NCBI RefSeq assembly: GCF_036365525.1
Contig: NC_090372.1
Span: forward strand, 146,462,365-146,526,364
Length of the DNA: 64,000 bases
DNA from: Heterodontus francisci
Lineage: Eukaryota
Direction: 5' to 3'
Every line of letters starts with the position of its first letter. The first letter of the stretch is position 1. The translations under genes and the position numbers were made by a program. Of the stretch, positions 2,618 to 64,000 are shown in pieces. The notes under the pieces were generated by a model. It did not search any database and was not told the origin of the DNA. It saw only the letters and a list, made by a program, of their open reading frames with translations.

Positions 2618-3127
2618 TCTAAAAACCATCATTGTGTTAAGTTGAATAATATATCTTGCCTGTGATTGTCAGCATATGGGAGTTCTTTTGTGAATGTGCA
2701 AATCCCAATACATCACACAAGTGCTACAAGTGCAAATTATCTACTATATAGTGACTGTCTTTAGGATGAGTGTAAGGACAGTTGGAACTCACCATCATGG
2801 GTTGGTTACTCTGCTTAGCCTACAGTCCAAGTTTCAATTTCATGGAAATACTATGTACACATTGCTGAACTGATACTTTCCATTCTTGTACACATGAACT
2901 ATCAATTTGGTACTTTCACACTTGTGTGAATGGAATATTTTGGATTTTTACAATTGTGAAGTAACAATTTTTTGAGTGAATTATATAGATGTATCTATTC
3001 CATGTCCATTATTCCCAGTGTTCTGGCTCTTTCTAGCTTTTTTTAGTGAATTAACCCTAGGGATTGACTACTTGAATGTCACTGAGCACTGGGCTGTCCC
3101 AGGCACTACATCCATCAGATGCTTAGA

Positions 3128-3504
3128 GGGAGGCAGTGGCATCGTGGTATTGTCACTGGACTAGTGACCCAGAGACCCAGGGTTTTGCTCTGGGGACATG
3201 GATTTGAATCCCACCACAACAGATGGTGAAATTTGAATTTAATTAATAAATCTGGAATTAAAAAGCTAGTCTAATGATGACCATGAAACCATTGTTGTAA
3301 AAATCCATCTCATTGACCAATGTCCTTTAAGAAAGAAAATCTGTCATCCTTACCTGGTCAGGCCTACATGTGACTCCAGACCCACAGCAATGTGGTTGAC
3401 TCTTAAAATGGCCTAGCAAGCCACTTAGTTCAAGGGCAATTAGGAATGGGCAATAAATGCTGGTCTAGCCAGAGACGCCTACATCCCACAAACAAATAAA
3501 AAAA
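3128..3504 (+). mobile_element. tRNA-headed SINE made of the 5' ~300 nt plus 3' ~75 nt of the LINE at 27427/47088
   Basis: A-box-like TGGCATCGTGG and B-box-like GATTTGAATCC. Colinear with LINE 27427-27747, then jumps at ~3430 to the LINE 3' end (30641 onward) and an A-rich tail. Confidence 0.9.
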
Positions 3505-5705
3505 TGTTTAATATCACGTTCCTCAAATACCAGCAGGAACCACTTCCAGAGCTGACCAACTCTCAAGAATAAAAATAATAAAATCTAACAAATCTTCACC
3601 AAACATTGTGTTCACCCTCCATAAAGTAATTAGATGCTTTAGGAACGATTACTACCACATTGTTTAGCTTTTAGGACAAAATGCCAAGACCATATGCATA
3701 CTTTTTATTCCTGATACAGTCCTCAAACTGAATACTGCAGTAGTCCATTAATTTCTGTAAAATTTCACTGGATTTATGACATTGCACCAAAGGTAGAACT
3801 GACCCAGTTAACGTGCATCTGATGTAAGATCTGTTTGTGCTTCCTAAACCCTGGGGTTGCATTGATTTCAAATCATAATGGCTTGAACTGGATGTGATCC
3901 TCCCTCCGGGCTTACAGTGAAGACTGGCCTGAATCAGTTCTTGTACTGAGTGACACTAAACTGAATTAAATTACCTGAACAACGCAAGTGTGCTGATTTT
4001 TAATTAATGGTTCCTGGACACAGGAGATTCCTATCAGCTGTTTACATTAATGGGTACGAATCTTCAGTACCAAGACAAAACTGAGAGGAAGAGATGAGGA
4101 TTTTACCCAAATGCAATCGGAGTAAATAATTCCCCATCATTTACACTGAACCAGTAGCTGTGATTGTGCTGCAGATTCACAGGAAATGTAAATGTACAGC
4201 ACTTATACATGAATGGCATGAAAATAGCACAGTAAACTGCTGAAAGCCAACTCATGTGAAAATACTGCAACCAATAGACTGTAGCAGATGATAATCACAA
4301 TCAGTAATATCTGTGTCCACAGGTACAGGAATAAACTCCATGGGGCCAAAAAAATTTGTTCTTGACATATTACCCTATTACCCTGAAGGGATGGCACAAG
4401 GACAAGTGACCATTTGTTTACAGTCATTCGGGGTTAAATAGCAACAGTACCTGAACTCTTCTCAGTTATTATCCCTGCATGGATGAACAGCCAGGAACAT
4501 TTATCAGAACTGTTCAAATAACTATAATCTAGCTGTGCCTTCCCAATATTGTCAAATATTGTTATGCTCTTTCTCTTTTAAGTAAATTGATAAGTAACTT
4601 GCATACCTCATAACTGATCAAAGTTAAAGCCACCAAATTGATGCATTAGTTTAATTATAAGTCACTATAACCTTATTAAACATTGTTTATGAGTAACATG
4701 AGCCTGTATATGTTGCTACACTGGAATGAATCAAGGAGGTAAGGTTTTCAACAGCCCATTTCTCATCCGAAAAACAGACCAGCAGCAGAAGAAAATTGAA
4801 TGGGCACCTTGGACACTCCATTGGTGCACAAGGCCTGTCTAATTCAATTTTCAAGCTGGCTTTTAAATGGTTGTTCAGCGCTCCAACCCAAAACAGGCAG
4901 AAGGCCATTTATAGGACCCAATTGTAATTTTCACATACAATTGGCCAGAATGTGCGTCATGCTTACTAAGCCCAGTTATATCAGACATTGAGTGAAATAT
5001 GCAATGGTCCTTAAAGGGACCACTGGAGGCTGCTCAGGAAAAGACATGGTTTTGCTTTCTTTAGACTTCTGTGCGGCCAGAAGGAGCATTCATGCTCCTT
5101 TCATGCTCCACCTAGCCTCAAATGTTTGGTCCACTGCCAAAAATACAAAGTAGTTACCTAAAGAAGAGGGACTGTTTGGCCTGGATAACGACATGGTTAT
5201 ATAGACATCCAGGTAAAGCTGTGCCATTAGATTATATTTGAAGGGCTGTGTTACCTTCATGCTTTAGCTCAACTTCCATAAGCAATCTCCAAATATACTA
5301 ATTCAGGATTCAGGAAGACATTCTTCCGCTAGCTGGTTTGATGGGAATTCCAGAGCAGCTTTGGCTGACACCTGTTCAGTTCACTTGGTGTGCCTATATC
5401 ATTACAGCATCTTGAGAAATCTCTGCACAAGGACACAACATTTATACAGCCAGTATTTTTAATCTTCTGAAACTTCTTAAAAAAAGGATTCATTCTGAAA
5501 ACATGGTGGCAGCAGCAGCATATGAAAGCATCACTGTAACCCTATTAACACTACATCCTGGGTAAGCAAAACAGACGTAAAAACAAACATCTCGAATTCA
5601 GTAAGGACTTTAGGACTGATTCTTGAAGAAGGTAGAGCTGAGTGCAGCCATGAGCCCTGCCAGTGACATTTTTTGTAAGTTTAATAAATTTGAGACATTG
5701 CTTAA

Positions 5706-15699: not shown

Positions 15700-15875
15700 A
15701 ACCTCACTGGGTCACATTTCTAGAACTCCCTCCCTAACAGCACTGTGGGTGTGCCGACACCACATGGACTGCAGAGGTTCAAGAAGGTGGCTCACCACCA
15801 CCTTCTCAATTTGGGATGGGCAATAAATGCTGGCCTGGCCAGCAATGCTCACATCCCAAGAAGGAATTTTAAAAA
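15700..15875 (+). mobile_element. 5'-truncated 3' end of the tRNA-headed LINE family
   Basis: Matches 30540-30716 (AACAGCACTGTGGGTGT...CACCACCACCTTCTCAA...GCAATAAATGCTGGCC). Confidence 0.85.
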
Positions 15876-15926
15876 TTCACTCCTGACAGTGTGTGCCCTT
15901 TGATGGTCATATTTGGTGGCACACAA

Positions 15927-16796: not shown

Positions 16797-19219
16797 GTTC
16801 GCAATTGGGGCAAGGCCAATTTTACTAAACTGAGGAGTGATTAAGCGAAAGTGGACTGGAAACAGCTACTTGAAGGTAAATCAGTGTCAGAGCAGTGGGA
16901 GGCATTCAAAGTGCAGATTCAAGGGGTTCAGAATAAACATGTTCCCACCAAGAAAAAGGATGAGACGGCCAAATCTATAGCCCCATGGAAGCTTATATAA
17001 AAGCAAAATACTGCAGATGCTGGAAATCTGAAATAAAAACAAGAAATACTGGAAATACTCAACAGGTCTGGCAGCATCTGTGGAGAGAGAAGCAGAGTTA
17101 ACGTTTCAGGTCAGTGACCTGACCTGATGAAGGGTCACTGACCTGAAAGGAAATCTGCTTCTCTCTCCACAGATGCTGCCAGACCTGCTGAATATTTCCA
17201 GTATTTCTTGTTTTTATTTCAGATTTCCAGCATCTGCAGTATTTTGCTTTTATATAACAATTTCTTGCTTTTATTCTTATTATTAAAGGAAAGCTTATGT
17301 CCAACACCGAGAACTCAATACCACAGAAAGAGGAGTATAGAAAGTGGTGGGGTGAAATCAAAAAAGAAATTAGGAAAGCAAAGAGAGGGCATGAAAGAAT
17401 ATTGGCAAGCAAAGTCAAGGTGAACCCAAAGATGTTTTATCATTACATTAAGAGTAAGAGGATAACTAAGGAGAGAGTAGGGCCCATAAAAGACCAAAAA
17501 GGTAACCTATGTGTTGGGCCAGAAGATGTTGGTATAGTTCTTAATGAATACTTTGCATCTGTCTTCACAAAAGAGGGGAACGATGCAGATATTGTCGTTA
17601 AGGAGGAGGAATATGAAGTATTGGATGTGATAAACATAGGGAGAGAGGAAATATTAATGGGATTAGCAACCTTGAAAGTTGATAAATCACCAGAGCCAGG
17701 TGAAATGTACCCCAGGCTGTTGAAAGAAGCAAGAAAGGAAATAGCAGAAGGTCTGACCATCATTTTCCAGTCCTCACTAGATACAGGTGTGGTGATGGAG
17801 GACTGGAGAACTGCTAATGTTGTATCTCTGTTTAAAAAGGGATAGGCCGAATAATTACAGGCCAGTAAGTCTAACCTCAGTAGTGGGCAAATTATTGGAA
17901 TCTATTCTGAGAGACAGGATAAACTGTCACTTAGAAAGGCACAGGTTAATCAAGGATAGTCGGCATGGATTGGTTAAGGGGAGAGCTTATTAGACCAACT
18001 TGATTGTATTTTTTGAAGAAGTAACAAGGAAGATAGATGAGGGTAGTGCAGTTGATGTGGTCTACATGGACTTTAGCAAGGCTTTTGACAAGGTCCCACA
18101 CGGCAGACTGTTTAACAAAATAAAATCCCATGGGATCCAGGGAAATGCAGCAAGGTGGATACAAAATTGGCTCAGTGGCAGGAAACAAAGGGGAATTGTT
18201 GACGGGTGTTTTAGTGACTGGAGGACTCTTTCCAGTGGCGTTCCACAGGGCTCAGTACTGGGTCCCCTGCTTTTTGTGATATATATTAACGATTTGGGCG
18301 TAAATGTAAATGGGGGCATGATCAAGAGTTTGCAGACATAAAGATTGGCCGTGTGGTAGATAGCGAGGAGGACAGCTATAGGCTGCAGAATGATATTGAT
18401 GGTCTGGTCAGATGGGCAGAAAAGTGGCGAATGGAATTCAACCTGGAGAAGTGTGAGGTGATGCATTTGGGGAGGTCAAACAAGGCAAAGGAATACACGA
18501 TTAATGGAAAAATACTGAGAAGTGTAGAGGAAGTGAGGGACTGAAGGTAGCAGGACAGGTTGATAAGGTGGTTAAGAGGGCAAATGGAATACTTTCCTTT
18601 ATTAGCCGAGGTATGGAATATTAGAGCAGGGAGGTTATGCTGGAACTGTATAACTCATTGGTTTGACCACAGCTTGAGTACTGTGCAGTTCTGGTCACCT
18701 CATTATAGAAAGGCTGAACTAGAGAGGGTACAGAGGAGATTTATGAGGATGTTGTCAGGACTGGAAAAATGCAGGAATGAGGAAAGATTGGATAGGCTGG
18801 GGTTGTTCTCCTTGGAATAGAGAAGGCTGAGGGACGATCTGATTGAAAAAATGTACAAAATTTTGAGGGGCCCATAGAATGGGTGTGAAGGGTCTATTCA
18901 CCTTAACAGAGAGGTCAGTGATATGGGGGCATAGATTTGAAGTAATTGGTAGAAAAATTAGAGGGGAGATGAGGAAAAGTTTTTTCACCCAGAGGGTGGT
19001 GGGGGTCTGGAACTCACTGCCTGAAAGGGTAGTTGAGGCACAGACCCTCACATCATTCAAAAGGAGTCTGGATATGCACCTCAAGTGCTGTAATCTGCAG
19101 GGCTAGGGACCAAATGCTGGAAGGTGGGATTAGAATAGGTGGATCATTTTTCGGCTGGCGCAGACACGATGGGCCAAGTGGCCTCTTTCTGTGCCTTAAA
19201 CTTTCTATGATTCTATGAT
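16797..19219 (+). mobile_element. 5'-truncated CR1 LINE nested in L2
   Basis: ORFs 17297-17845 and 18000-18341 (MDFSKAFDKVPH, GVPQGSVLGP); (TTCTATGA)n tail. Confidence 0.92.
16993..17257. mobile_element. Palindromic Penelope-type terminal-repeat element with a hammerhead-like core
   Basis: Near-perfect ~125-bp inverted arms; CTGATGA-stem II-GAAA at 17124-17148. Inserted in CR1 with a possible AAGCTTAT duplication. Confidence 0.7.
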
Positions 19220-27426: not shown

Positions 27427-30400
27427 GGGAAGGCAGTGGCGTAGTGGTATTATTACTGGACTAATAACCCAGAGACCCAGGGTATTGATCTGGAGACATG
27501 GATTCAAATCCCACCACAGCAGAAGGTGGAATTTGAATTTAATTAATAAATCTGGAATTAAAAGCTAGTCTAATGATGGCCATGAAACCACTGTCGATTG
27601 TTGTAAAAACCCATCTGGTTCACTAATGTCCTTCAGGGAAGGAAATCTGTTGTCCTTACCTGGTCTGGCCTACATGTGATTTCAGACCCACAGCAATGTG
27701 GTTAACTCTTACGTGCCCTCTGAAACGGCCTAGCATGCCACTCAGTTGTACCTAACCGCTACAAAGTCAATAAAAAGGAATGAAACCGGGTGGACCTTCC
27801 GGCATCGACCTCGGCACCAGAAATGACAATGGCAAACTCAGCCCTGTCGACCCTGCAAAGTCCTCCTTGCGAACATCTGGGGACTTGTGCCAAAGTTGGG
27901 AGAGCTGTCCCACAGACCAGTCAAGCAACAGCCTGACATAGTCATACTCACGTCATACCTTACGTACAATGTCCCAGACACTGCAATCACTATCCTTGGG
28001 TATGGCCTGTCCCACCGGCAGGACAGACCCAGCAGAGGTGGCGGGACAGTGGTCTACAGTAGGGAGGGAGTTACCCTGGGAGTCCTCAACATCAACTCCG
28101 GACCCCATGAAGTCTCATGGCATCAGGTCAAACATGGGCAAGGTAACATCCTACTGGTTACCACCTACCGCCCTCCCTCAGCTGATGACTCAGTACTCCT
28201 CCATGTTGAACACCACTTGGAGGAAGCACTGAGGGTGGCAAGGGCACAAGATGTACTCTGGGTGGGGGACTTCAATGCCCATCACCAAGAGTGGCTCGGT
28301 AGCACCACTACTGACCGAGCTGGCCAAGTCCAAAAGGACATAGTTGCTAGACTGGGTATGCGGCAGGTGGCGAGGGAACCAACATGAGGGTAAAACATAC
28401 TTGACCTTGTCCACACCAATCTGCCTGCCGCAGATGAGTCTGTCCACGACTGTATTGGTAGGAGTGACCACCGCACAGTCTATGTGGAGACGAAGTCCCG
28501 CCTTCACATTGAGGATACCGTCCATCGTGATTGTGAGGCACTATCACCTTGCTAAATGGGATAGATTTCAAACAAATCTAGCAATGCAAAACTGGGCATC
28601 CATGAGGTGCTGTGGGCCATCAGCAGCAGCAGAATTGTACTCAACCACAATCTGTAACGTCATGGCCCGGCATATCCCCCACTCTACCATTACCATCAAG
28701 CCAGGAGACCAACTCTGGTTCAATGAAGAGTGCAGGAGGGCATGCCAGGAGCAGCACCAGGCATACCTCAAAATGAGGTGTCAGCCTGGTGAAGCTACAA
28801 CCCAGGACTACTTGCCTGCCAAACTGCATAAGCAGCATGCAATAGACTGAGCTAAGCGATCCCATAACTAACGGATCAGATCTAAGCTCTGCAGTCCTGC
28901 CACATCCAGCCGTGAATGGTGGTGGACAGTTAAACAACTAACTGGAGGAGGTGGCTCCACAAATATCCCCATCCTCAATAATGGGGGAGCCCAGCACATC
29001 AGTGCGAAAGATAAGGCAGAAGCATTTGCAACAATCTTCGGCCAGAAGTACTGAGTTGATGACCCATCTCGGCCACCTCCTGAAGTCCCCAGCATTATAG
29101 ATGCCAGACGTCAGCCAGTTCGATTCACTCCGCGTGATATCAAGAAACGACTGAAGGCACTGGATTCTGCAAAGGCTATACTGACAATATTCCGGCAATA
29201 GTACTGAAGACCTGTGCTCCAGAACTTTCTGCGCCCCTAGCCAAGCTGTTCCAGTACAGCTACAACACTGGCATCTACCCGGCAATGTGGAAAATTGCCC
29301 ATGTATGTCCTGGACAGAAAAAGCAGGACAAGTCCAACCCGGCCAATTACTGCCCCATCAATCTACTCTCAATCATCAGCAAAGTGATGGAAGGTGTCAT
29401 CAACAGTGCCATCAAGCAGCACTTGCTTAGCAATAACCTGCTCAGTGACGCTCAGTTTGGGTTCCGCCAGAGCCACTCAGCACCTGACCTCATTACAGTC
29501 TTGGTTCAAACATGGATAAAAGAGCTGAATGCAAGAGGTGAGCAGAGAGTGACTACCCTTGACATCAAGGCAGCATTTGACCGAGTATGGCATCAAGGAG
29601 CCCTAGCAAAACTGGAGTCAATGGGAATCAGGGGGAAAACTCTCCGCTGGTTAGAGTCATGCCTAGTGCAAAGGAAGGTGGCTGTGGTTGTTGGAGGTCA
29701 ATCATCTGAGCTCCAGGACATCACTGCAGGAGTTCCTCAGGGTAGTGTCCGAGGCCCAACCATCTTCAGCTGCTTCATCATGACCTTCCTTCAATTATAA
29801 GGTCAGAAGTGGGGATGTTCGCTGATGATTGCACAATGTTCAGCACCATTGATGACTCCTCAAATACTGAAGCAGTCTGTGTAGAAATGCAGCAAGACCT
29901 GGACAATATCCAGGCTTGGGCTGATAAGTGGCAAGTGACATTTGCGCCACACAAGTGCCAGGCAATGACCATCTCCAACAAGAGAGAATCTAACCATGTC
30001 CCCTTGACATTCAATGGCATTACCATCGCTGAATCCCCCACTATCAACATCCTAGGGGCTACCATTGACGAGAAACTGAACTGGAGTAGCCATATAAATA
30101 CCATGGCTACAAGAGCAGGTCAGAGGCTAGGAATCCTGCGACGTGTAACTCACCTCCTGATTCCCCAAAGCCTGTCCACCATCTACAAGGCACAAGTCAG
30201 GAGTGTGATGGAATAGTCTCCATTTGCCTGGATGGGTGCAGCTCCAACAACAGTCAAGACGCTCGACACCATCCAGGACAAAGCAGCCCGCTTGATTGGC
30301 ACCCCATCCACAAACATTCACTGCCTCCACCAGCGGCGCACAGTGGCAGCAGTGTGTACCATCTACAAGATGCACTGCAGCAATGCACCAAGGCTCCTTA

Positions 30401-30716
30401 GACAGCACCTTCCAAACCCGCGACCTCTACCACCTCGAAGGACAAGAGCAGCAGATGCATGGGAACACCACCACCTGCAAGTTCCCCTCCAAGCCACACA
30501 CTATCCTGACCTGGAACTATATCGCCGTTCCTTCACTGTCGCTGGGTCAAAATCCTGGAACTCCCTTCCTAACAGCACTGTGGGTGTACCTACCTCACAT
30601 GGACTGCAGTGGTTCAAGAAGACAGCTCACCACCACCTTCTCAATGGCAATTAGGGATGGGCAATAAATGCTGGCATAGCCAGTGATACCCACAACCCAT
30701 GAATGAATTAAAAAAA
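27427..30716 (+). mobile_element. Full-length tRNA-headed, single-ORF (APE-RT) LINE of the CR1/Jockey group (not canonical CR1), copy 1, decayed
   Basis: A box TGGCGTAGTGG (27437-27447) and B box GATTCAAATCC (27501-27511). APE motifs NIWGL, DIVILT, YRPP, GDFNAH, SDH. RT motifs LDIKAAFDRVWH, GVPQGS, FADD. Stop at 30654, 3' hairpin and A tail. Confidence 0.92.
27437..27511 (+). promoter_or_regulatory. Internal RNA polymerase III type-2 promoter (A and B boxes) at the LINE 5' end
   Basis: Perfect match to TRGCNNARYGG and near match to GGTTCRAATCC; homologous boxes occur in copy 2 and in the SINE. Confidence 0.75.
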
Positions 30717-31321
30717 TGGCAAAAATCATTTCTAGAGCAGTATAAAACACAGGATTTTTTTGAATTTTGGAACTGGTGAGGAAAGGGTCTGCAATATTGC
30801 TGTCTTTATGCACCACATATGCAGTGTAATAATCCTACCCATTTAAATTGGGTATTTGTGGTTAACTGAGATCTCACATTTCAGAAACCAAAACAGAAAC
30901 AGAGTTAATTTGCTTTTGTTGGCAGACACTTCTCAGTTATGAAGAATAATTTGAGTGACAATGGAGCAGAAAGAGCAGGAATGTCAGTTGGCATTATATG
31001 CAGCCACCTATATGCTGCCCACCATTTCTATAGGTCTGTTCAGAACTGCCTGACAAACACTGACAGTCGTACATTATGGATCATCAGGAAGGCAATTACT
31101 GACTATGCCATCTGCTTCATGTGCTTCTACCATTGGCATGCCATGGTCAGTGCTTAACTGCATAGACAGTAATAGATATCTGTCCAACTACAACCCACAC
31201 GGGCTGATAGTAAATAAATTTGCAACATGCAGCTCGGTGGTGTTGCAAGGATTTGTTGTGTGAAGGTCCTTTAACTTTCATTTCCAAGTGCCAATTTCTG
31301 TTGTGCTCTGCTGCAGGATGG

Positions 31322-36460: not shown

Positions 36461-36470
36461 AGTCCTTATT

Positions 36471-36775
36471 TTTTTTTTATTTAGAGATATAGCACTGAAA
36501 CAGGCCCTTCGGCGCACCGAGTCTGTGCCGACCAAGAACCACCCATTTATACTAACCCTACAGTAATCCCATATTCCCGACCACCTACCTACACTCGGGG
36601 CAATTTACAATGGCCAATTTACCTATCACCTGCAAGTCTTTGGCGGTGGGTGGAAACCGGAGCACCCGGCGAAAACCCACGTGGTCACAGGTCACTTGCA
36701 AACTCCGCACAGGCAGTACCCAGAATTGAACCCGGGTCCCTGGAGCTGTGAGGCTGCAGTGCTAACCACTGCGCC
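36471..36775 (-). mobile_element. V-SINE (HE1-like)
   Basis: GGCGCAGTGGTTAGCAC head, GGGTGCTCCGGTTTCC core, CR1-like tail; CCTTATT duplicated at both ends. Confidence 0.9.
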
Positions 36776-38120: not shown

Positions 38121-38169
38121 CAGAACCCTACTGACAATCTGCCAGTGTGATGCTAGGTATATAGACCAT

Positions 38170-39208
38170 TCAGTACCAAGGCCATTCCAACCTCTATCAT
38201 CAAGCTGCAGTATGCTGACGATGCTTGTGTCTGCGCACACTCAGAGGCTGAACTTCAAACCCTCGTTGAGGCATTTACGGATGCGTATAAAAGAGTGGTC
38301 CTGAAGCTAAACATCCGGAAGACAAAGGTCCTCTACCAGCCTGCTTCCACAGCGCAACACTGCCCCCCGACTAGCAAGATCCACCGCCAACCACTGGACA
38401 ATGTTGATCACTTCCCATACCTTGGGAGCCTCCTCTCAGCATGGGCAGACATAAACAATGAAACTCAATGTTGCCTCCAGTGTGCCAGTGCAGCCTTCGG
38501 TCCTCTGAGGAAAAGAGTGTTTGATGACAAAGACGTCAAACCTGGCACCAAACTCCTGGTCTACAGGTCACAGTGTTACCTGCCCTCCTGTATGTGTCAG
38601 GAACACGTACAGCAGACATCTCAAAGCCCTGGAGATATCATCAGCGGTGCCTCTGCAAGATCCTGTAAATTCAGCGGCAGGACAAGGGCTTCAATATCAG
38701 TGTCCTCTCTCAGGCCAACATCCCCAGTATCGAGACACTGGTCATGGCTAGTCAGCTACAGTGGGTGGGCCACATGGTCCACATGCCTGACAAAGACTGC
38801 CAAACAAACTTTCTGCTCCGAGATCCATTATGGCAAGAGGCTATCAGGAGGGCAGAGGAAACGCTACAAGGATGTCCTTAAAGCCTTCCTGAAAAATGTG
38901 GCATCTCCACCAATTTGTGGGAATCTCTTGCTCGAGATCACACAAAATGGAGAAGAAGCATCCGTGATGTTGCCAGCCAGTTCGAACAACATTGACATGC
39001 CCAGGCAGCAACCAAGTGCAAACAGCAGAAGATAGCATTCGGAATTTCGAGCATCCCATTCACTCGCCTCACCAAACACCACCTACCCCACCTGTGGCAG
39101 AGTATGTGGATCCAAAATTGGACTATTCAGTCACAGAAGGAACCACAACCCTGGAGTGGAAGAAAGTCATCCTCATTCCCGACGAACTGCCTAAGAAGAA
39201 GAAGACGA
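38170..39208 (+). mobile_element. RTE-clade LINE, 5'-truncated
   Basis: LQYADDAC, LKLNIRKTKVLYQP, FPYLGS, GGQRKRYKD; (AAG)n tail at ~39195. Confidence 0.88.
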
Positions 39209-47087: not shown

Positions 47088-50000
47088 GGGGAGGTGGTGG
47101 CATAGTGGTATTGTCACTGGACTAGTAACCCAGAGACCCAGGGTATTGCTCTGGGGTCATGGGTTTGAATACCAGCACAGCAGAAGGTGGAATTTGAATT
47201 CAATTAATAAATCTGGAATTAAAAGCTAGTCTAATGATGGCCATGAAACCATTGTCGATTGTTGTAAAAACCCATCTGGTTCACTAATGTCCTTCAGGGA
47301 AGGAAATCTGCTCTCCAAACCTGGACTGGTCTTCATGTGACTCCAGACCCACAGCAATGTGGTTGACTCTTACATGCCCTGTGAAATGGCCTAGCAAGCC
47401 ACCGCTATGAAGTCAATAAGAAAAAATGAAACTGGTCGGAACACCTGGCATCAACCGAGGCACCGGAAACGACAACGGCAAACCCAGCCCTGTCGACCCT
47501 GCAAAGTCTTCCTTACTAACATCTGGGGGCTTGTGCCAAAGTTTAGTTTAGTTTAGTTTAGTTTAGAGATACAGCACTGAAACAGGCCCTTCGGCCCACC
47601 AAGTCTGTGCCGACCATCAACCACCCATGTATACTAACCCTACACTAATTCCATATTCCTACCACATCCCCACCTGTTCCTATATTTCCCTACCACCTAC
47701 CTATACTAGGGGCAATTGCTAATGGCCAATTTACCTATCAACCTGCAAGTCTTTGGCATGCGGGAGGAAACCGGAGCACCCGGAGGAAACCCACGCAGAC
47801 ACAGGGAGAACTTGCAAACTCCACACAGGCAGTACCCAGAATTGAACCCGGGTCGCTGGAGCTGTGAGGCTGCGGTGCTGACCACTGCGCCACTGTGCCG
47901 CCCCGCAAAAGTTGGGAGAGCTGTCCCACAGACGAGTCAAGCAACAGACTGGCATAGTCATACTCACGGAATCATACCTTACAGATAATGTCCCAGAAAC
48001 TGCCATCACCATCCCCGGGTATGTCCTGTCCCACTGGCAGGACAGACCCAGCAGAGGTGGTGGCACAGGGGTATACAGTAGGGAGGGAGTTGCCCTGGGA
48101 GTCCTCAACATCAACTCCGGACCCCATGAAATCTCATGGCATCAGGTCAAACATGGGCAAGGTAACCTCCTACTGATTACCACCTACCGCCCTCCCTCAG
48201 CTGATGACTCAGTACTCCTCCATCTTGAACACCACTGGAGGAAGCACTGAGAGCGGCAAGGGTGCAGAATGGGAGACTTCAAAGTCCATCATCAGGAGTG
48301 GCTCGGTAGCACCACTACTGACCGAGCTGGCTGAGTCTTAAAGACCTAGTTGCTAGACTGGGTATGTTCCAGGTGGTGGGGGAACCAACAAGAGGGAAAA
48401 ATAGACTTGACCTCGTCCTCACCAATCTGCCTGCCGCAGATGCATTTGTCCATGACAGTATTGGTCAGAGTGACCACCGCACAGTCCTTGTGGAGACGAA
48501 GTCCCGCCTTCACATTGAAGATACCCTCCACTGTGTTGTATGGCACTACCACCATGCTAAATGGGATAGATTTCGAACAGATCTAGCAATGCAAAACTGG
48601 GCATCCATGAGGCACTGTGGGCCATCAGCAGCAGTAGAATTATACTCAACCACAATCTGTAACGACATGGCCCGGCATATCCCCTACTCTACCATTACCA
48701 TCAAGCCAGGAGACCAACCCTGGTTCAATGAAGAGTGCAGGAGGGCATGCCAGGAGCAGCACCAGGCATAACTCAAAATGAGGTGTCAACCTGGTGAAGC
48801 TACAACACAGGATTACAAACTGCGTAAGCAGCATGCAATAGACAGAGCTAAGCGATCCCCTACCCAACGGATCAGACCTAAGCTCTGCAGTCCTGCCACA
48901 TCCAGACATGATTGGTGGTGGACAATTAAACAACTAACTGGAGGAGGTGGCTCCACAAATATCCCCATCCTCAATAATGGGGGAGCCCAGCACATCAGTG
49001 CGAAAGATAAGGCTGAAGTATTTGCAGTAATCTTCAGCCAGAAGTGCCGAGTTGATGATCCATCTCGGCCTCCTCCTGAAGTCCCCAGCATCACAGATGC
49101 CAGACTTCAGCCAATTCGATTCACTCCATGTGATATCAAGAAACAAATGAAGGCACTGGATACTGCAAAGGCTATGGGCCCTAACAATATTCCGTTAGTA
49201 GTACTGAAGACCTGTGCTCCAGAACTTGCCACGCCCCTAGCCAAGCTGTTCCAGTACAGCTACAACACTGGCATCTACCCTGCAATGTGGAAAATTGCCC
49301 AGGTATGTCCTGTACACACAAAGCAGGACAAGTCCAACTCGGCCAATTACTGCCCCATCAGACTACTCTCAATCATCAGTAAAGTATGGAAGGTGTCATC
49401 AACAGTGCCATCAAGCGGCACTTGCTTAGCAATAACCTGCTCAGTGATGCTCAGTTTGGTTTCCACCAGGGCCGCTCAGCTCCTGACCACATTACAGCCT
49501 TGGTTCAAACATGGACAAAAGAGCTGAACTCAAGAGGTGATGTGAGAATGACTGCCCTTGACATCAAGGCAGCATTTGACCGAGTATGGCATCAAGGAGC
49601 CCTAGCAAAACTGAGGTCAATGGGAAGCAGGGGGAAAACCCTCCACTGGCTGGAGTCATACCTAGTGCAAAGGAAGATGGTTGTCGTTGTAGGAGATCAA
49701 TCATCTCAGCTCCAGGACATCGCTGCAGGAGTTCCTCAGGGTAGTGCCCTAGGCCCAACCATCTTCAGCTGCTTCATCAATGACCTTCCTTCAATCATAA
49801 GGTCAGAAGTGGGGATGTTTGCTGATGATTGTACAATGTTCAGCACCATTTGTGACTCCTCAAATACTGAAGCAGTCCGTGTAGAAATGCAGCAAGACCT
49901 GGACAATATCCAGGCTTGGGCTGATAAGTGGCAAGTGACATTTGCGCCACACAAGTGCCAGGCAATGACCATCTCCAACAAGAGAGAATCTAACCATCTC

Positions 50001-50712
50001 CCCTTGACAGTCAATGGAATTACCATCACTGAATCCCCCACTATCAACATCCTAGGGGCTACCATTGACCAGAAACTGAACTGGAGTAGCCATATAAATA
50101 CCGTGGCTACAAGATCAGGTCAGAGGCTAGGAATCCTGCGGCGGGTAACTCACCTCCTGACTCCCCAAACCTGTCCACCATCTACAAGGCACAAGCCAGG
50201 AGTGTGATGGAATACTCTCCTCTTGCCTGGATGGGTGCAGCTCCAACAACACTCAAGAAGCTCGACACCATCCAGGACAAAGCAGCCCGCTTGATTGGCA
50301 CATCTACAAACATTCACTGCCTCCACCACCGGCGCACAGTGGCAGCAGTGTGTACCATCTACAAGATGCACTGCAGCAACGCACCAAGGCTCCTTCGACA
50401 GCACCTTCCAAACCCGCGACCTCTACCAACTAGAAGGACAAGTGCATCAAATGCATGGGAACACCACCACCTGCAAGATACCCTCCAAATCACACACCAT
50501 CCTGACTTGGAACTATATCGCTGTTCCTTCACTGTCGCTGGGTCAAAATCCTGGAACTCCCTTCCTAACAGCACTGTGAGTGTACCTACCCCACATGGAC
50601 TGCAGCGGTTCAAGAAGGTAGCTCACCACCACCTTCTCAATGGCAATTAGGGATGGGCAATAAATGCTGGCCTGGCCAGCGATGCCCACATCCCATGTAT
50701 GAATAAAAAAAA
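47088..50712 (+). mobile_element. Full-length tRNA-headed APE-RT LINE, copy 2, interrupted by a V-SINE
   Basis: Colinear with 27427-30716 from the first nucleotides to the A tail; ORF pieces 47912-50650. Confidence 0.92.
47541..47904 (-). mobile_element. Full-length V-SINE (HE1-like) with (TAAAC)n tail
   Basis: GGGGCGGCACAGTGGCGCAGTGG head; AAAGTT duplicated at both junctions. Confidence 0.92.
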
Positions 50713-53489: not shown

Positions 53490-54702
53490 TGTTATGACCA
53501 AGGCTGGAGGAATGCACTATCTTTCTCTAGTTGCACTACTCCACAGGTCACAGCATATATTTAAATGTTTACCAAGTTACCGATACGGGCAAATATAGAC
53601 TCTATTTTTATTTCAGAATAAAATCCATCAAGCAGGTTTCTTTAATAAACAACAATATCACCAATATATTATTAAACTAGGCTTATTCGGTAAAGATGCA
53701 AAACATTAACACACAGATTGAAATCTGAAAGTTCCCTTCTAAATTAGCCCTACACATACAAGCACACAGCAGTTAAAGAAAAAATAAAGAAGTTTTCTCT
53801 GCAGAGATCTCTTTACAAAAAAAACCTTAGCCAGATACTTGTTAACTCTTGAAGGGAAAGAGAGGATATGGAATGATATCAGTTGTCCCTTTATTCTGGC
53901 ATCCCAAATACGTGTAGACAGCTGTCACTGGGATTTTTTGGAGCAGTTCTCTTTCGGTGATGTCGAGGATTAGTCTGGCAGGCTTTCCAGGGGAAATGCT
54001 GCATCGGGGGTTTCAGCTATCACTCTGGATTCTCAGGCTTTCAGAGAAGTGAAGAAAGGATGAGCTTGGTGTTTCTCTCAGCAGGCTGCAATCCTCAACT
54101 CACGCAAAACAACATCTAAAACGAAACCAACTCCTGACCACCATAAATCTTGACATGTCACTTCTCTGTAAATAACTCCCCTAGTCACCAAGACTCTTGC
54201 TGTTTACTTAGCTGAAGACATGTGACTTCCAGTAAGTGTGTTTCTAAACCAAGTTCCAAGTCCTTTTTTTTATTTTTAGAGATACAGCACTGAAACAGGC
54301 CCTTCAGCCCACCGAGTCTGTGCCGACCAACAACCACCCATTTATATTAACCCTACAGTAATCCCATATTCCCTACCACCTACCTACACTAGGGGCAATT
54401 TACAACGACCAATTTACCTATCACCTGCAAGTCTTTGGCTGTGGGAGGAAACCGGAGCACCCTGCGAAAACCCACGCGGTCACAGGGAGAACTTGCAAAC
54501 TCTGCACAGGCAGTACCCAGAATCGAACCCGGGTCCCTGGAGCTGTGAGGCTGCGGTGCTAACCACTGCGCCACTGTGCCACCCCTTGCGCCACTGTCCA
54601 GCATCTATGTAATCTGTTCTGTCCTCCAAAAGGAATCCATTTCCACAATTTTAAAACACAAGTCCTCACAAAATATTAAGAAATGGAAGTACTTTCATAA
54701 CA
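53490..54702. mobile_element. Solo LTR containing a V-SINE
   Basis: TGTTATGA...TCATAACA termini and a perfect 4-bp TSD CTAT (53486-53489, 54703-54706). Confidence 0.85.
54263..54585 (-). mobile_element. V-SINE (HE1-like)
   Basis: Same head, core and tail as 36471-36775 and 47541-47904. Confidence 0.92.
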
Positions 54703-59227: not shown

Positions 59228-62200
59228 AAAGAACAAAGAACAAAGAACAAAGATAATTACAGCACAGGAACAGGCCCTTCGGCCCTCCAAGCCTGCGCCG
59301 ATCCAGATCCTCTCTCTAAACATGTCGCCTATTTTCTAAGCTTCTGTATCTCTTTTCTTCCTGCCCATTCATGTATCTGTCTAGATACATCTTAAAAGAC
59401 TCCATCGTGCCCGCATCTACCACCTCCGCTGGCAATGCATTCCAGGTGCCCACCACCCTCTGCGTAAAGAACTTTCCACGCATATCCCCCCTAAACTTTT
59501 CCCCTTTCACTTTGAACTCGTGTCCTCTAGTAATTGAAACCCCCACTCTGGGAAAAAGCTTCTTGCTATCCACCCTGTCTATACCTCTCATGATTTTGTA
59601 CACCTCAATCAGGTCCCCCCTCAACCTCCGTCTTTCTAATGAAAATAATCCTAATCTACTCAACCTCTCTTCATAGCTAGCGCCCTCCATACCAGGCAAC
59701 ATCCTGGTGAACCTCCTCTGCACCCTTTCCAAAGCATCCACATCCTTTTGATAATGTGGCGACCAGAACTGTACGCAGTATTCCAAATGTGGCCGAACCA
59801 AAGTCCTATACAACTGTAACATGACCTGCCAACTCTTGTACTCAATGCCCCGTCCGATGAAGGAAAGCATGCCGTATGCCTTCTTGACCACTCTATTTAC
59901 CTGCGTTGCCACCTTCAGGGAACAGTGGACCTGAACACCCAAATCTCTCTGGACATCAATTTTCCCCAGGACTTTTCCATTTATTGTACAGTTCACTCTT
60001 GAATTGGATCTTCCAAAATGCATCACCTCGCATTTGCCCGGATTGAACTCCATCTGCCATTTCTCTGCCCAACTCTCCAATCTATCTATATTCTGCTGTA
60101 TTCTCTGACAGTCCCCTTCACTATCTGCTACTCCACCAATCTTAGTGTCGTCTGCAAATTTGCTAATCAGTCCACCTATACTTTCCTCCAAATCATTAAT
60201 GTATATCACAAACAACAGTGGTCCCAGCACGGATCCCTGTGGAACACCACTGGTCACACGTCTCCATTTTGAGAAACTCCCTTCTACTGCTACTCTCTGT
60301 CTCCTGTTGCCCAGCCAGTTCTTTATCCATCTAGCTAGTACACCTTGGACCCCAAGCGCCTTCACTTTCTCCATCAGTCTGCCATGGGGAACCTTATCAA
60401 ACGCCTTACTGAAGTCCATGTATATGACATCGACAGCCCTTCCGTCATCAATCAACTTTGTCACTTCCTCAAAGAATTCTATTAAGTTGGTAAGACATGA
60501 CCTTCCCTGCACAAAACCATGTTGCCTATCACTGATGAGCCCATTTTCTTCCAAATGGGAATAGATCCTATCCCTCAGTATCTTCTCCAGCAGCTTCCCT
60601 ACCACTGACGTCAGGCTCACCGGTCTATAATTACCTGGATTATCCCTGCTACCCTTCTTAAACAAGGGGACAACATTAGCAATTCTCCAGTCCTCCGGGA
60701 CCTCACCCGTGTTTAAGGATGCTGCAAAGATATCTGTTAAGGCCCCAGCTATTTCCTCTCTCGCTTCCCTCAGTAACCTGGGATAGATCCCATCCGGACC
60801 TGGGGACTTGTCCACCTTAATGCCCTTTAGAATACCCAACACTTCCTCCCTCCTTATGCCGACTTGACCTAGAGTAATCAAACATCTGTTCCTAACCTCA
60901 ACATCCGTCATGTCCCTCTCCTCGGTGAATACCGATGCAAAGTACTCGTTTAGAATCTCACCCATTTTCTCTGAGTCCAAGCATAACATTCCTCCTTTGT
61001 CCTTTAGTGGGCCAATCCTTTCTCTGGTTACCCTCTTTCTCCTTATATATGAATAAAAGGCTTTGGGACTTTCCTTAACCCTGTTTGCTAAAGATATTTC
61101 ATGACCCCTTTTAGCCCTCTTAATTCCTCGTTTCAGATTGGTCCTACATTCCCGATATTCTTTCAAAGCTTCGTCTTTCATCAGCCGCCTAGACCTTATG
61201 TATGCTTCCTTTTTCCTCTTAGCAAGTCTCACAATTTCACCTGTCATCCATGGTTCCCTAATCTTGCCATTTCTATCCCTCATTTTCACAGGAACATGTC
61301 TCTCCTGCACGCTAATCAACCTCTCTTTAAAAGCCTCCCACATATCACATGTGGATTTACCTTCAAACAGCTGCTCCCAATCTACATTTCCCAGCTCCTG
61401 CCGAATTTTGGTATAGTTGGCCTTCCCCCAATTTAGCACTCTTCCTTTAGGACCACTCTCGTCTTTGTCCATGAGTATTTTAAAGCTTACGGAATTGTGA
61501 TCACTATTCCCAAAGTAGTCCCCTACTGAAACTTCAACAACCTGGCCGGGCTCATTCCCCAACACCAGGTCCAGTATGGCCCCTTCCCGAGTTGGACTAT
61601 TTACATACTGCTCTAGAAAACCCTCCTGGATGCTCCTTACAAATTCTGCTCCATCTGGACCTCTAACATTAAGCGAATCCCAGTCAATGTTGGGAAAATT
61701 AAAATCTCCTATCACCACCACCCTGTTGCTCCTACATCTTTCCATAATCTGTTTACATATTTGTACCTCTATCTCACGCTCGCTGTTGGGAGGCCTGTAG
61801 TACAGCCCCAACATTGTTACCGCACCCTTCCTATTTCTGAGTTCTGTCCATATTGCCTCACTGCTCGAGTCCTCCATAGTGCCCTCCTTCAGCACAGCTG
61901 TGATATCCTCTTTGACCAGTAATGCAACTCCTCCACCCCTTTTACCTCCCTCTCTATCCCGCCTGAAGCATCGATATCCTGGGATATTTAGTTGCCAATC
62001 ATGCCCTTCCCTCAACCAAGTCTCAGTAATAGCAATAACATCATACTCCCAGGTACTAATCCAAGCCCTAAGTTCATCTGCCTTACCAACTACACTTCTT
62101 GCATTAAAACAAATGCACCTCAGACCACCAGTCCCTTTATATTCATCATCTGCTCCCTGCCTGCTCTTCCCCTTAGTCACACTGACTTCATTATCTAGTT

Positions 62201-62296
62201 TCTTACAGGCTTTTGTTACTACCTCCTCACTGTCAACTGACCTCAATTGGTTCCCATCCCCCTGCCACATTAGTTTAAACCCTCCCCAACAGCGTT
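59228..62296 (-). mobile_element. Young CR1 LINE, 5'-truncated within the end of ORF1
   Basis: (TTCTTTG)n tail at 59228-59253 and an uninterrupted ORF2. Confidence 0.95.
59316..62270 (-). CDS. CR1 ORF2, APE endonuclease plus reverse transcriptase, 984 aa, intact
   Basis: Starts MWQGDG at a TAATG stop/start overlap with the ORF1 remnant; motifs NARS, ITETWL, GDFN, SDH, DFSKAFD and FADD are present. Confidence 0.92.
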   Translation of the reverse strand: MWQGDGNQLRSVDSEEVVTKACKKLDNEVSVTKGKSRQGADDEYKGTGGLRCICFNARSVVGKADELRAWISTWEYDVIAITETWLREGHDWQLNIPGYRCFRRDREGGKRGGGVALLVKEDITAVLKEGTMEDSSSEAIWTELRNRKGAVTMLGLYYRPPNSEREIEVQICKQIMERCRSNRVVVIGDFNFPNIDWDSLNVRGPDGAEFVRSIQEGFLEQYVNSPTREGAILDLVLGNEPGQVVEVSVGDYFGNSDHNSVSFKILMDKDESGPKGRVLNWGKANYTKIRQELGNVDWEQLFEGKSTCDMWEAFKERLISVQERHVPVKMRDRNGKIREPWMTGEIVRLAKRKKEAYIRSRRLMKDEALKEYRECRTNLKRGIKRAKRGHEISLANRVKESPKAFYSYIRRKRVTRERIGPLKDKGGMLCLDSEKMGEILNEYFASVFTEERDMTDVEVRNRCLITLGQVGIRREEVLGILKGIKVDKSPGPDGIYPRLLREAREEIAGALTDIFAASLNTGEVPEDWRIANVVPLFKKGSRDNPGNYRPVSLTSVVGKLLEKILRDRIYSHLEENGLISDRQHGFVQGRSCLTNLIEFFEEVTKLIDDGRAVDVIYMDFSKAFDKVPHGRLMEKVKALGVQGVLARWIKNWLGNRRQRVAVEGSFSKWRRVTSGVPQGSVLGPLLFVIYINDLEESIGGLISKFADDTKIGGVADSEGDCQRIQQNIDRLESWAEKWQMEFNPGKCEVMHFGRSNSRVNCTINGKVLGKIDVQRDLGVQVHCSLKVATQVNRVVKKAYGMLSFIGRGIEYKSWQVMLQLYRTLVRPHLEYCVQFWSPHYQKDVDALERVQRRFTRMLPGMEGASYEERLSRLGLFSLERRRLRGDLIEVYKIMRGIDRVDSKKLFPRVGVSITRGHEFKVKGEKFRGDMRGKFFTQRVVGTWNALPAEVVDAGTMESFKMYLDRYMNGQEEKRYRSLENRRHV

Positions 62297-64000
62297 GGGA
62301 ACAGACTTGGCAGCACAAAACTTGTTATGAATGATGTTATTGAGATAAAGGTAAGGACAAGTTTGTTAAGTTTTCAGATAAACCATAGTCATGAACTCAG
62401 GCAGTAATTAACAGTCTAACACAGATACTACCTGTATTAGAGATTGGACAGCAGAGTGCACGACTAGTTTCTTTTGCAGCTTTGGGGTCCTCAAGCTTTT
62501 TGGTCGCTCTCTCTCTCTTGTAATTTCTCTTGTTGTTCGAAGATTCTCTGCCGCACAGTAGCAAGGACAGGACTTCTTTTATCCTGGCAGCTTTCCAGTT
62601 AACCCTCCCCTCTCCCAATCAGTGATTATTCTTGTATTAAAGGATGTCTTTCTTAACCAACCAAGGATCATTTTGTGATGGTTGCTAACTTTTCAGATTT
62701 GCACAAGTAGTACCCCTTTGTGTTGACTACTTTATCTCAATGCTTTTACATTTCGAGGATGCCTTTCTCAGTACAAGAAAATCTACGCAGATGCTGTTTT
62801 CACTGTCTGCTCTCAATGTCTCACCCTTTTGCTGCAAGTAAGCATTTTAAAACTTGACATAATCTCCCAGAATCCCTCTGTCTTGACATCTTGTCCATAC
62901 TTTACTCTATCTCCTAAGCTTTACCACTTTACCATACTACAAAAAAGGGTTCTAATAAAGCTAAATGTTAGTTTCTGATACTTAGTTAGTTGTTAGTTTA
63001 TAATAGCTGGATTTTAACAATTAGTATGCTATTAGTACATGGTGATCACGATGCGTGATTATCCCATGCCCGATTGAAGTGATGCAGGAGGCAGGCAAAC
63101 TTCATGCTGCCTGCTCATTTCCATGATAATGGCATGTAGCCCAGCACTGAACACTGAATATCCTGCTGAGGGGCTACCAGGGGTTGGCAATGTGTCTGTA
63201 CACGGACACTAGTATCCATGGTAAAAATGTTGAGGTCTGTGACTGGTAATTTCAAGGATGCAAAATTTCCCATTGCCTTCTTTCCAACCAGTTGGATGGG
63301 TTCCGTTCTAACAAGATCCCACCAAAAACCACGAACTGGTCCTAAGTTTGGAAGTGCTGTCTCTGCTCTAAGCACCTGTCAGCTGTGAAACTGACAGCTG
63401 CGATTTTTTGAAAAAACTGACCAACCTCAAAGCAGCTCTACTGGAAGTTCCCACTCTCTGCAACTGTCAGAGAAAGGGGAGGGGGGCAGGAGAGACCACA
63501 CATGGGATGGATGACACACAGAGGGAGGGAGAGAGAGAGCGATCAAGATCACTCCTGACAGATGGAGATGTGTCTGGAATACTCCACATTGCTACAAGAA
63601 GTGTGCAGGCAAACATTGATTACTTATGCAAGCATAAAAAAGCCAGGTATCACACTAAATCACTGTCCAACATAGTGACCAGAGAATAAGTCAATAAATT
63701 AGTCTCCTCATTTAAAGCTTCTTCATAAAAATGCACCTTTTTTGTTGTTTTGATGAATAGTAAGATAAATTTTTTATGTCTTTATCTTTGTGAAATTGTC
63801 ACATCAGCCCCCTATGTTAAGACAAAAATTGTAATGTGGCCCCCACGCTAAAATGTTGGATATTCCTGCTTCAAGCCTTTAACCTTGTGTTTTAAAATAA
63901 CCTAGCAGCAAAAGTAATTACAAAAGTAATTTTCATTGTCATTGCATACTATTTTGCTTGCTAGCTAGCTAATACAATTGTGCTGCTCTCCATTGATGTT

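Follow-up and report, generated by a model that had tools for sequence, protein, structure and literature searches.

LINEs are classically transcribed by Pol II into mRNA, SINEs by Pol III into short RNAs without coding capacity. Within a 64,000-nucleotide stretch of the Heterodontus francisci genome (contig NC_090372.1, positions 146,462,365 to 146,526,364; the window in what follows) lies a LINE copy that opens with the A and B boxes of a Pol III promoter and has no run of four T on its sense strand. The question raised by this locus is which polymerase makes the RNA of such an element, and how that RNA could be translated. From the sequence we infer that a Pol III transcript, translated independently of cap and AUG, is the best reading, with a probability of roughly 0.6. 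A fuller account is more tentative, and we would put it slightly below even odds: an autonomous elasmobranch Zenon whose 3-kb coding Pol III RNA would be polyadenylated in the fashion of T+ SINEs, carry an uncapped, IRES-like leader and start at a non-AUG codon, and which would have been present since before the shark-ray split and make up several percent of the genome, in effect a "self-sufficient SINE". The parts of the element and its relatives in the window are as follows.

27427..30716, + strand: Zenon LINE copy, full-length but decayed, 95.8% identical to the family majority sequence; its 5' end was compared with the published consensi by eye
27437..27447, + strand: Pol III type-2 A box, from element position +11 onward
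27501..27511, + strand: Pol III B box; the window copy has a damaged base at 27502
27427..27747, + strand: tRNA-like head and conserved body, common to the short SINE-type derivative
27755..27760, + strand: putative region of non-AUG initiation for the long frame, its spacing to the downstream frame being conserved
27780..27782, + strand: conserved out-of-frame ATG, which opens a short overlapping uORF
27755..30654, + strand: single APE endonuclease and reverse transcriptase ORF, broken in the window copy
30652-30654, + strand: stop codon of the long APE-RT ORF
30641..30716, + strand: 3' tail, common to the LINE and the SINE derivative
30663-30668, + strand: AATAAA in the 3' tail of the window copy
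30708-30709, + strand: TT before the A tail
30710-30716, + strand: A7 terminal tail
47088..50712, + strand: second full-length Zenon copy (copy 2), split by another repeat at 47544-47904
3123..3506, + strand: short non-autonomous derivative, element 1-321 joined to element 3215-3290
15704..15876, + strand: 5'-truncated Zenon 3'-end fragment, whose terminus is T4 followed by A5

The A and B boxes with which the initial annotation had the element open were located at 27437-27447 and 27501-27511. The tRNA-like head that it described fared less well: both boxes are present, but likeness to a whole tRNA is weak, the Rfam match (15.1 bits, E 3.3) falling below the gathering score of 29 and ARAGORN finding no tRNA. 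The invariant G of the B box, lost at 27502 in the window copy, is retained by 91% of 57 full-length copies. The single APE-RT frame is open in the majority sequence of the family, but the window copy carries several stops and frameshifts in it and is a dead element. We built the majority sequence (3297 nt) from a MAFFT alignment of 21 long copies; it holds one open frame of 975 codons with matches to Pfam Exo_endo_phos and RVT_1, a leader of about 330 nt and no ORF1. An initial majority sequence had a seeming frameshift, which the alignment had produced; the 4 bases concerned are present in 46 of 58 copies. Variants common to many copies comprise 55 synonymous, 32 non-synonymous and 1 stop, against 531 synonymous, 1653 non-synonymous and 84 stop among private variants. 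The APE-RT ORF is under purifying selection, and since this is seen on shared variants, source copies used their own protein, which backs the earlier claim that the element encodes its own enzyme.

A head missing from most long copies had been named as a possible refutation. We examined 26 copies picked by endonuclease sequence alone (30 less the window copy and three duplicates), and 22 extend into the head, the other 4 being truncated further in; 14 start no more than 12 nt, and 17 no more than 30 nt, from position 1. In two copies (L103 and L112) the match spans the passage from head to ORF at 80-85% identity, which marks the association of head and LINE as old. Full-length 5' ends are sharp and lie 10 nt ahead of the A box, as SINE ends do. 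Judged by these alignments, the A/B-box head is part of the LINE unit, in Heterodontus as in the five sharks and rays with published consensi. Among 24 full-length copies we found no consistent target-site duplication (a 6-7 nt match in 3), and the base directly 5' of the element is A in about half. We sampled the 6.0-Gb assembly at 40 arbitrary coordinates, 10 kb each; blastn matches to the family cover 33,650 of these 400,000 bases (8.4%), and most family pieces in this sample are 5'-truncated.

Stuart et al. 2026 (PMC13343379) describe ORF1-less, A-tailed Zenon elements in five elasmobranchs, the coelacanth and the hagfish. Their five shark and ray consensi (CarCar_Zenon-1, RhiTyp_Zenon-1, ScyCan_Zenon-1, SquAca_Zenon-1 and HypSab_Zenon-1; 3244-3314 nt) lack ORF1 and end in an A tail, like the Heterodontus element, and by eye their first 400 nt are nearly identical to its 5' end, A and B boxes included, whereas the hagfish and coelacanth Zenons start differently over the same length. 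When the first 400 nt of each of ∼1,000 CR1-group rows were searched with six B-box 10-mers, 6 rows matched, all of them elasmobranch Zenon. From these comparisons the Heterodontus element and the published elasmobranch Zenon very probably belong to the same family. The main text of PMC13343379 contains neither "tRNA" nor "promoter", and we found no remark on the head, the T depletion or the missing AUG in its accessible portions. A single APE-RT ORF without ORF1 and a poly(A) tail are the traits of a Zenon; the esterase ORF1 or close RT kinship of a canonical vertebrate CR1 is lacking. The 5' A and B boxes are those of a SINE2, but the element is neither short nor non-coding, and only the derivative at 3123-3506 is both. 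An RT tree of 41 rows, none labelled Zenon, places the family outside the co-resident CR1 clade, among unlabelled APE-RT proteins, with 24-31% protein identity to the co-resident CR1s.

We recounted the T runs on which the initial annotation had built its case, and its numbers held. The window copy (27427-30716) has no T4 run and 14 A4 runs, where "at least a dozen" had been claimed; copy 2 (47088-50712) has no T4 with or without its 361-nt insertion; the first T run past the window copy lies in the flank at 30755; and the canonical CR1 of the window, cited as rich in sense-strand T4, has 12 over 59316-62324. The consensus count that had been proposed gave the same result, the whole majority sequence having T3 8 and T4 0 against A3 44, C3 47 and G3 40. 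Within the majority ORF there are 5 T3 runs against 14.5 expected, none of 3000 synonymous permutations being as low, and all five can be accounted for by five TTT codons. Likewise, a single 5-mer has four or more T where 12.4 are expected (0 of 2000 permutations as low), TVTTT is absent against 3.1 expected (P=0.024, synonymous permutation), and T4 is absent against 2.45 expected (P=0.058, synonymous-codon permutation). Runs of A, C and G in the ORF are as expected, and the antisense strand has 21 TTTT and 10 TVTTT matches. Dinucleotide shuffles of the whole element gave 2 T-rich 5-mers against 12.6 (P=0.002), 0 matches to TTTT or TVTTT against 5.0 (P=0.011), and 0 T4 alone against 1.9 (P=0.14). 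Assays on SINEs found TTTT and TVTTT to be the minimal sequences that still terminate Pol III (PMC8466645).

Other LINEs, the comparison that the initial annotation had called for, show no comparable loss. The window CR1 has 12 T4 against 12.4 expected, and further CR1-like frames from the genome sample are close to expectation, one having 3 T4 against 7.1. Among 23 distant metagenome relatives with ORFs of 800 or more codons, the T3 observed/expected ratio is nowhere below 0.75 and has a median of 1.02, where the Zenon element has 0.35; one of these relatives (L168, ratio 0.75) has z=-3.4. Genomic Zenon copies carry 0.12-0.40 T4 per kb, increasing with age, where the genome sample carries 6.1. 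T-rich runs are selectively lost from the sense strand of the element. The depletion beyond composition that had been postulated therefore stands for T3 runs and T-rich 5-mers, whose loss goes beyond the codon and dinucleotide nulls, but T4 by itself is borderline, and avoidance of terminators is the presumed cause. TT is depleted throughout (odds 0.72), which could stem from other forces, TA stands at genome background (0.69 vs 0.70), and the T content is 20.6%. A T4 at position 1142, present in nine copies, was rejected as a real feature of the element, since it fits CpG decay where the change creates a stop codon. Two partial, T-poor relatives from one metagenome assembly series (L142 and L148) have 0-1 T4 against 2.0 and 3.0 expected; their 5' ends are absent.

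The ORF and leader of the earlier account stood, but it had overlooked the absent in-frame AUG and the T runs at 3' ends. The first in-frame ATG lies at element position 1160 (codon 285), behind the endonuclease region, and ten out-of-frame ATGs precede it in the majority sequence, all before position 430 and 9 of them within head and body. Two subfamilies differ across the ATG-less stretch at 11 well-supported non-CpG sites, 10 of them third codon positions, which shows that the endonuclease is translated despite the absent AUG. The A-rich spacer from 27755 to the next conserved codons keeps its 24 nt in diverged old copies and measures, by eye, 24, 24, 24 and 21 nt in four of the published species and 23 in the fifth; this conserved length points to a non-AUG start near 27755, just past the SINE-shared part. 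The out-of-frame ATG at 27780, present in the main consensus of all five published elasmobranch species, may offer a frameshift route to the long frame. Its uORF has no Pfam match, we saw no canonical slippery heptamer by eye, and two old copies (L103 and L284) lack this ATG and keep the frame spacing. A possible helix between 27700-27704 and 27753-27757, with a path from one mismatch through wobble to Watson-Crick, may serve as a lead, one pair being too little for more; leader structure as a whole is not unusual (z=-1.3). AUG-independent initiation is known for L1 ORF2 and R2, and an AUG-less frame fits an uncapped RNA without proving it.

We scored 77 LINE-type 3' ends, many from loci picked by likeness to the end of the window copy. 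The A tail is preceded by no T in 8, one in 37, two in 12, three in 1 and T4-6 in 17, with 2 unscored, so that T1-2 is the majority state; 75 of the 77 have A4-11 tails, and AATAAA lies about 40 nt upstream of the T run or A tail. The T4-6 subset resembles T+ SINEs, in which AATAAA and a Pol III terminator precede the A tail. The T+ SINEs B2, Dip and Ves (PMC8466645) likewise have an A/B-box head, AATAAA, a variable T run and a short A tail, and T4+ occurs in 24-48% of Ves copies with A5-10 tails, against 22% in the shark element; however, T+ SINEs are short and non-coding, whereas the shark element is 3.3 kb long and encodes an APE-RT. In T+ SINEs, T elongation beside short A tails occurs in part after insertion (PMC8466645), so the 3' T runs need not be functional, and we regard them as weak support for Pol III termination.

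The family also has shorter members. In the short derivative, element 1-321 is followed directly by the last ∼75 nt; it is about 385 bp long with the Zenon tail, and has at least 40 matches. Further internally deleted derivatives (L128:6286-7047, L241 and L258) differ in their head/3' junctions, and these varied junctions suggest that SINE-like forms were born repeatedly from the LINE. A near-full-length subfamily (L292-L299) has a 36-nt deletion in the endonuclease region, common to all 8 of its copies; it spread in trans or with an altered enzyme.

Under the Pol III reading, the 5' end of an ORF1-less shark and ray Zenon LINE would be a SINE-type head of tRNA origin, and the LINE would be transcribed mainly by Pol III from the internal A and B boxes. 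Source copies that gained T-rich terminators would yield no full-length RNA, and the sense strand would be purged of them. A T run, either terminal in the element or in flanking DNA, would end the RNA, which might be polyadenylated like T+ SINEs; uncapped, this RNA would be translated without scanning or AUG, probably from about 27755, by way of the conserved leader. The APE-RT would then copy its own RNA as well as the observed head-plus-tail and internally deleted derivatives. In the L1/Alu system Pol III transcripts need no ORF1p (PMC2666806); however, all Zenons share the loss of ORF1 and the A tail, including lepidopteran ones that have no Pol III promoter (PMC13343379, PMC6740152), so neither trait is evidence for Pol III. 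The 3.3-kb length, far above that of SINEs, counts against this reading, and Kojima ties SINE length to weak Pol III processivity (PMC10886601). Assembled contigs from four runs, one recorded as RNA, cover the element and not its flank; they carry no start, end or strand.

Alternatively, the element may be a Zenon transcribed by Pol II, with a SINE head acquired in the distant past. That head would then be retained for promoting Pol II transcription, for binding TFIIIC or for its RNA structure, or be renewed by exchange with the SINE, and U runs would be avoided for other reasons, for example nucleases that cleave UU, decay of U-rich RNA or 3' processing that comes too early. We consider this unlikely, although LINEs are ordinarily Pol II transcripts (PMC10886601) and the RTE LINE RTE-1_DAn carries a tRNA-like sequence with no Pol III claim in the accessible text of its description (PMC5786205). 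The absence of such a head from non-elasmobranch Zenons, the AATAAA close to the 3' end and the generality of the TT depletion are also in its favor. Yet T-rich 5-mers are depleted further than the TT dinucleotide level, and the co-resident CR1 is undepleted. RNase L cleaves UU and UA, and a TA frequency at genome background is unlike what that nuclease would leave. A capped RNA would face ten out-of-frame ATGs and no in-frame one, and the sharp 5' end 10 nt before the A box is that of a SINE.

Labor might instead be divided, Pol III making the T-purged template and the protein coming from a capped or spliced Pol II read-through RNA, or from the out-of-frame ATG with a frameshift. The T purge would then be explained with no need for an uncapped RNA to be translated, and this reading agrees with the out-of-frame ATG in all five published main consensi and with the spread in trans of defective derivatives, including the subfamily with the endonuclease deletion. 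We nevertheless hold it to be distinctly unlikely: purifying selection needs the protein of a source copy to be linked to that copy's own spread, inspection by eye showed no canonical slippery heptamer, L103 and L284 lost the ATG yet kept the frame spacing, and none of the 15 joints examined, of 1653, is like a GT-AG intron at its 5' end. That the head is a separate SINE lying by chance before some LINE copies, with T scarcity a by-product of base and codon composition, is very improbable and already contradicted: a free SINE with an identical head does exist and the element is T-poor (20.6%), but nearly all long copies, and five other species too, have one and the same junction, and the depletion persists under codon-preserving nulls.

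Parts of the architecture have parallels. The lepidopteran pair of Zenon and Persaeus (PMC6740152) likewise comprises a Zenon LINE and a derivative with 5' and 3' ends, a deletion between them and an A tail, but Persaeus, which carries the Zenon 5' UTR, has, in the accessible text, no tRNA homology and no Pol III promoter, unlike the shark element. SacSINE1 and the Deu-SINEs of sharks are also tRNA-headed retroposons with a LINE-derived tail; length and tail set SacSINE1 apart (463 bp and an L2-type tail, against ∼385 bp and a Zenon tail; PMC2746220, PMC5499810). Bov-tA and SINE2-1_ACar join tRNA-derived sequence to LINE parts but are non-coding (PMC4494074). Three motifs of the conserved body had no match in two MetaSINE supplement files. 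Pattern searches found no A/B-box pair, and comparison no similarity to the head, in 80 metagenome relatives (26-41% identity over the RT query), many of which are without 5' ends; viral contigs yielded no relative, three motif matches there being due to chance, and prokaryote genomes yielded none. Among the reports listed by searches of the open literature, none describes a Pol III-driven or tRNA-headed coding LINE. The family is known, and its mode of expression is apparently undescribed.

If the Pol III reading is true, a natural vertebrate 3-kb Pol III mRNA would break the polymerase split between LINEs and SINEs, allow translation independent of cap and AUG to be studied on a natural example, and illustrate one way in which a SINE and its LINE partner come to have both ends in common. 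It opens to test the limits of Pol III transcript length and coding, the association of ORF1 loss with Pol III use, and the role of the conserved SINE body, and a compact leader that combines Pol III promotion with translation would be of use as a part for expression constructs.

The window and the genome sample hold other repeats. The canonical CR1 at 59316-62324 (- strand) has an open ORF2 of 1002 codons and is about 95% identical to another copy (L134); its family has been active recently. The 361-nt repeat at 47544-47904, inverted within copy 2, has relatives at 36466-36775 and 54264-54585 and is presumably a V-domain SINE of HE1 type. At 38157-39035 (- strand) lies a decayed RT-like frame from another LINE type, which we take by motif to be RTE-like, and at 16993-17257 a self-inverted 265-nt stretch with 92% arm identity. 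Two loci of the sample (L116 and L121) carry frames of 530-630 codons unrelated to either LINE protein, which by motif we assume to be Penelope-type RT.
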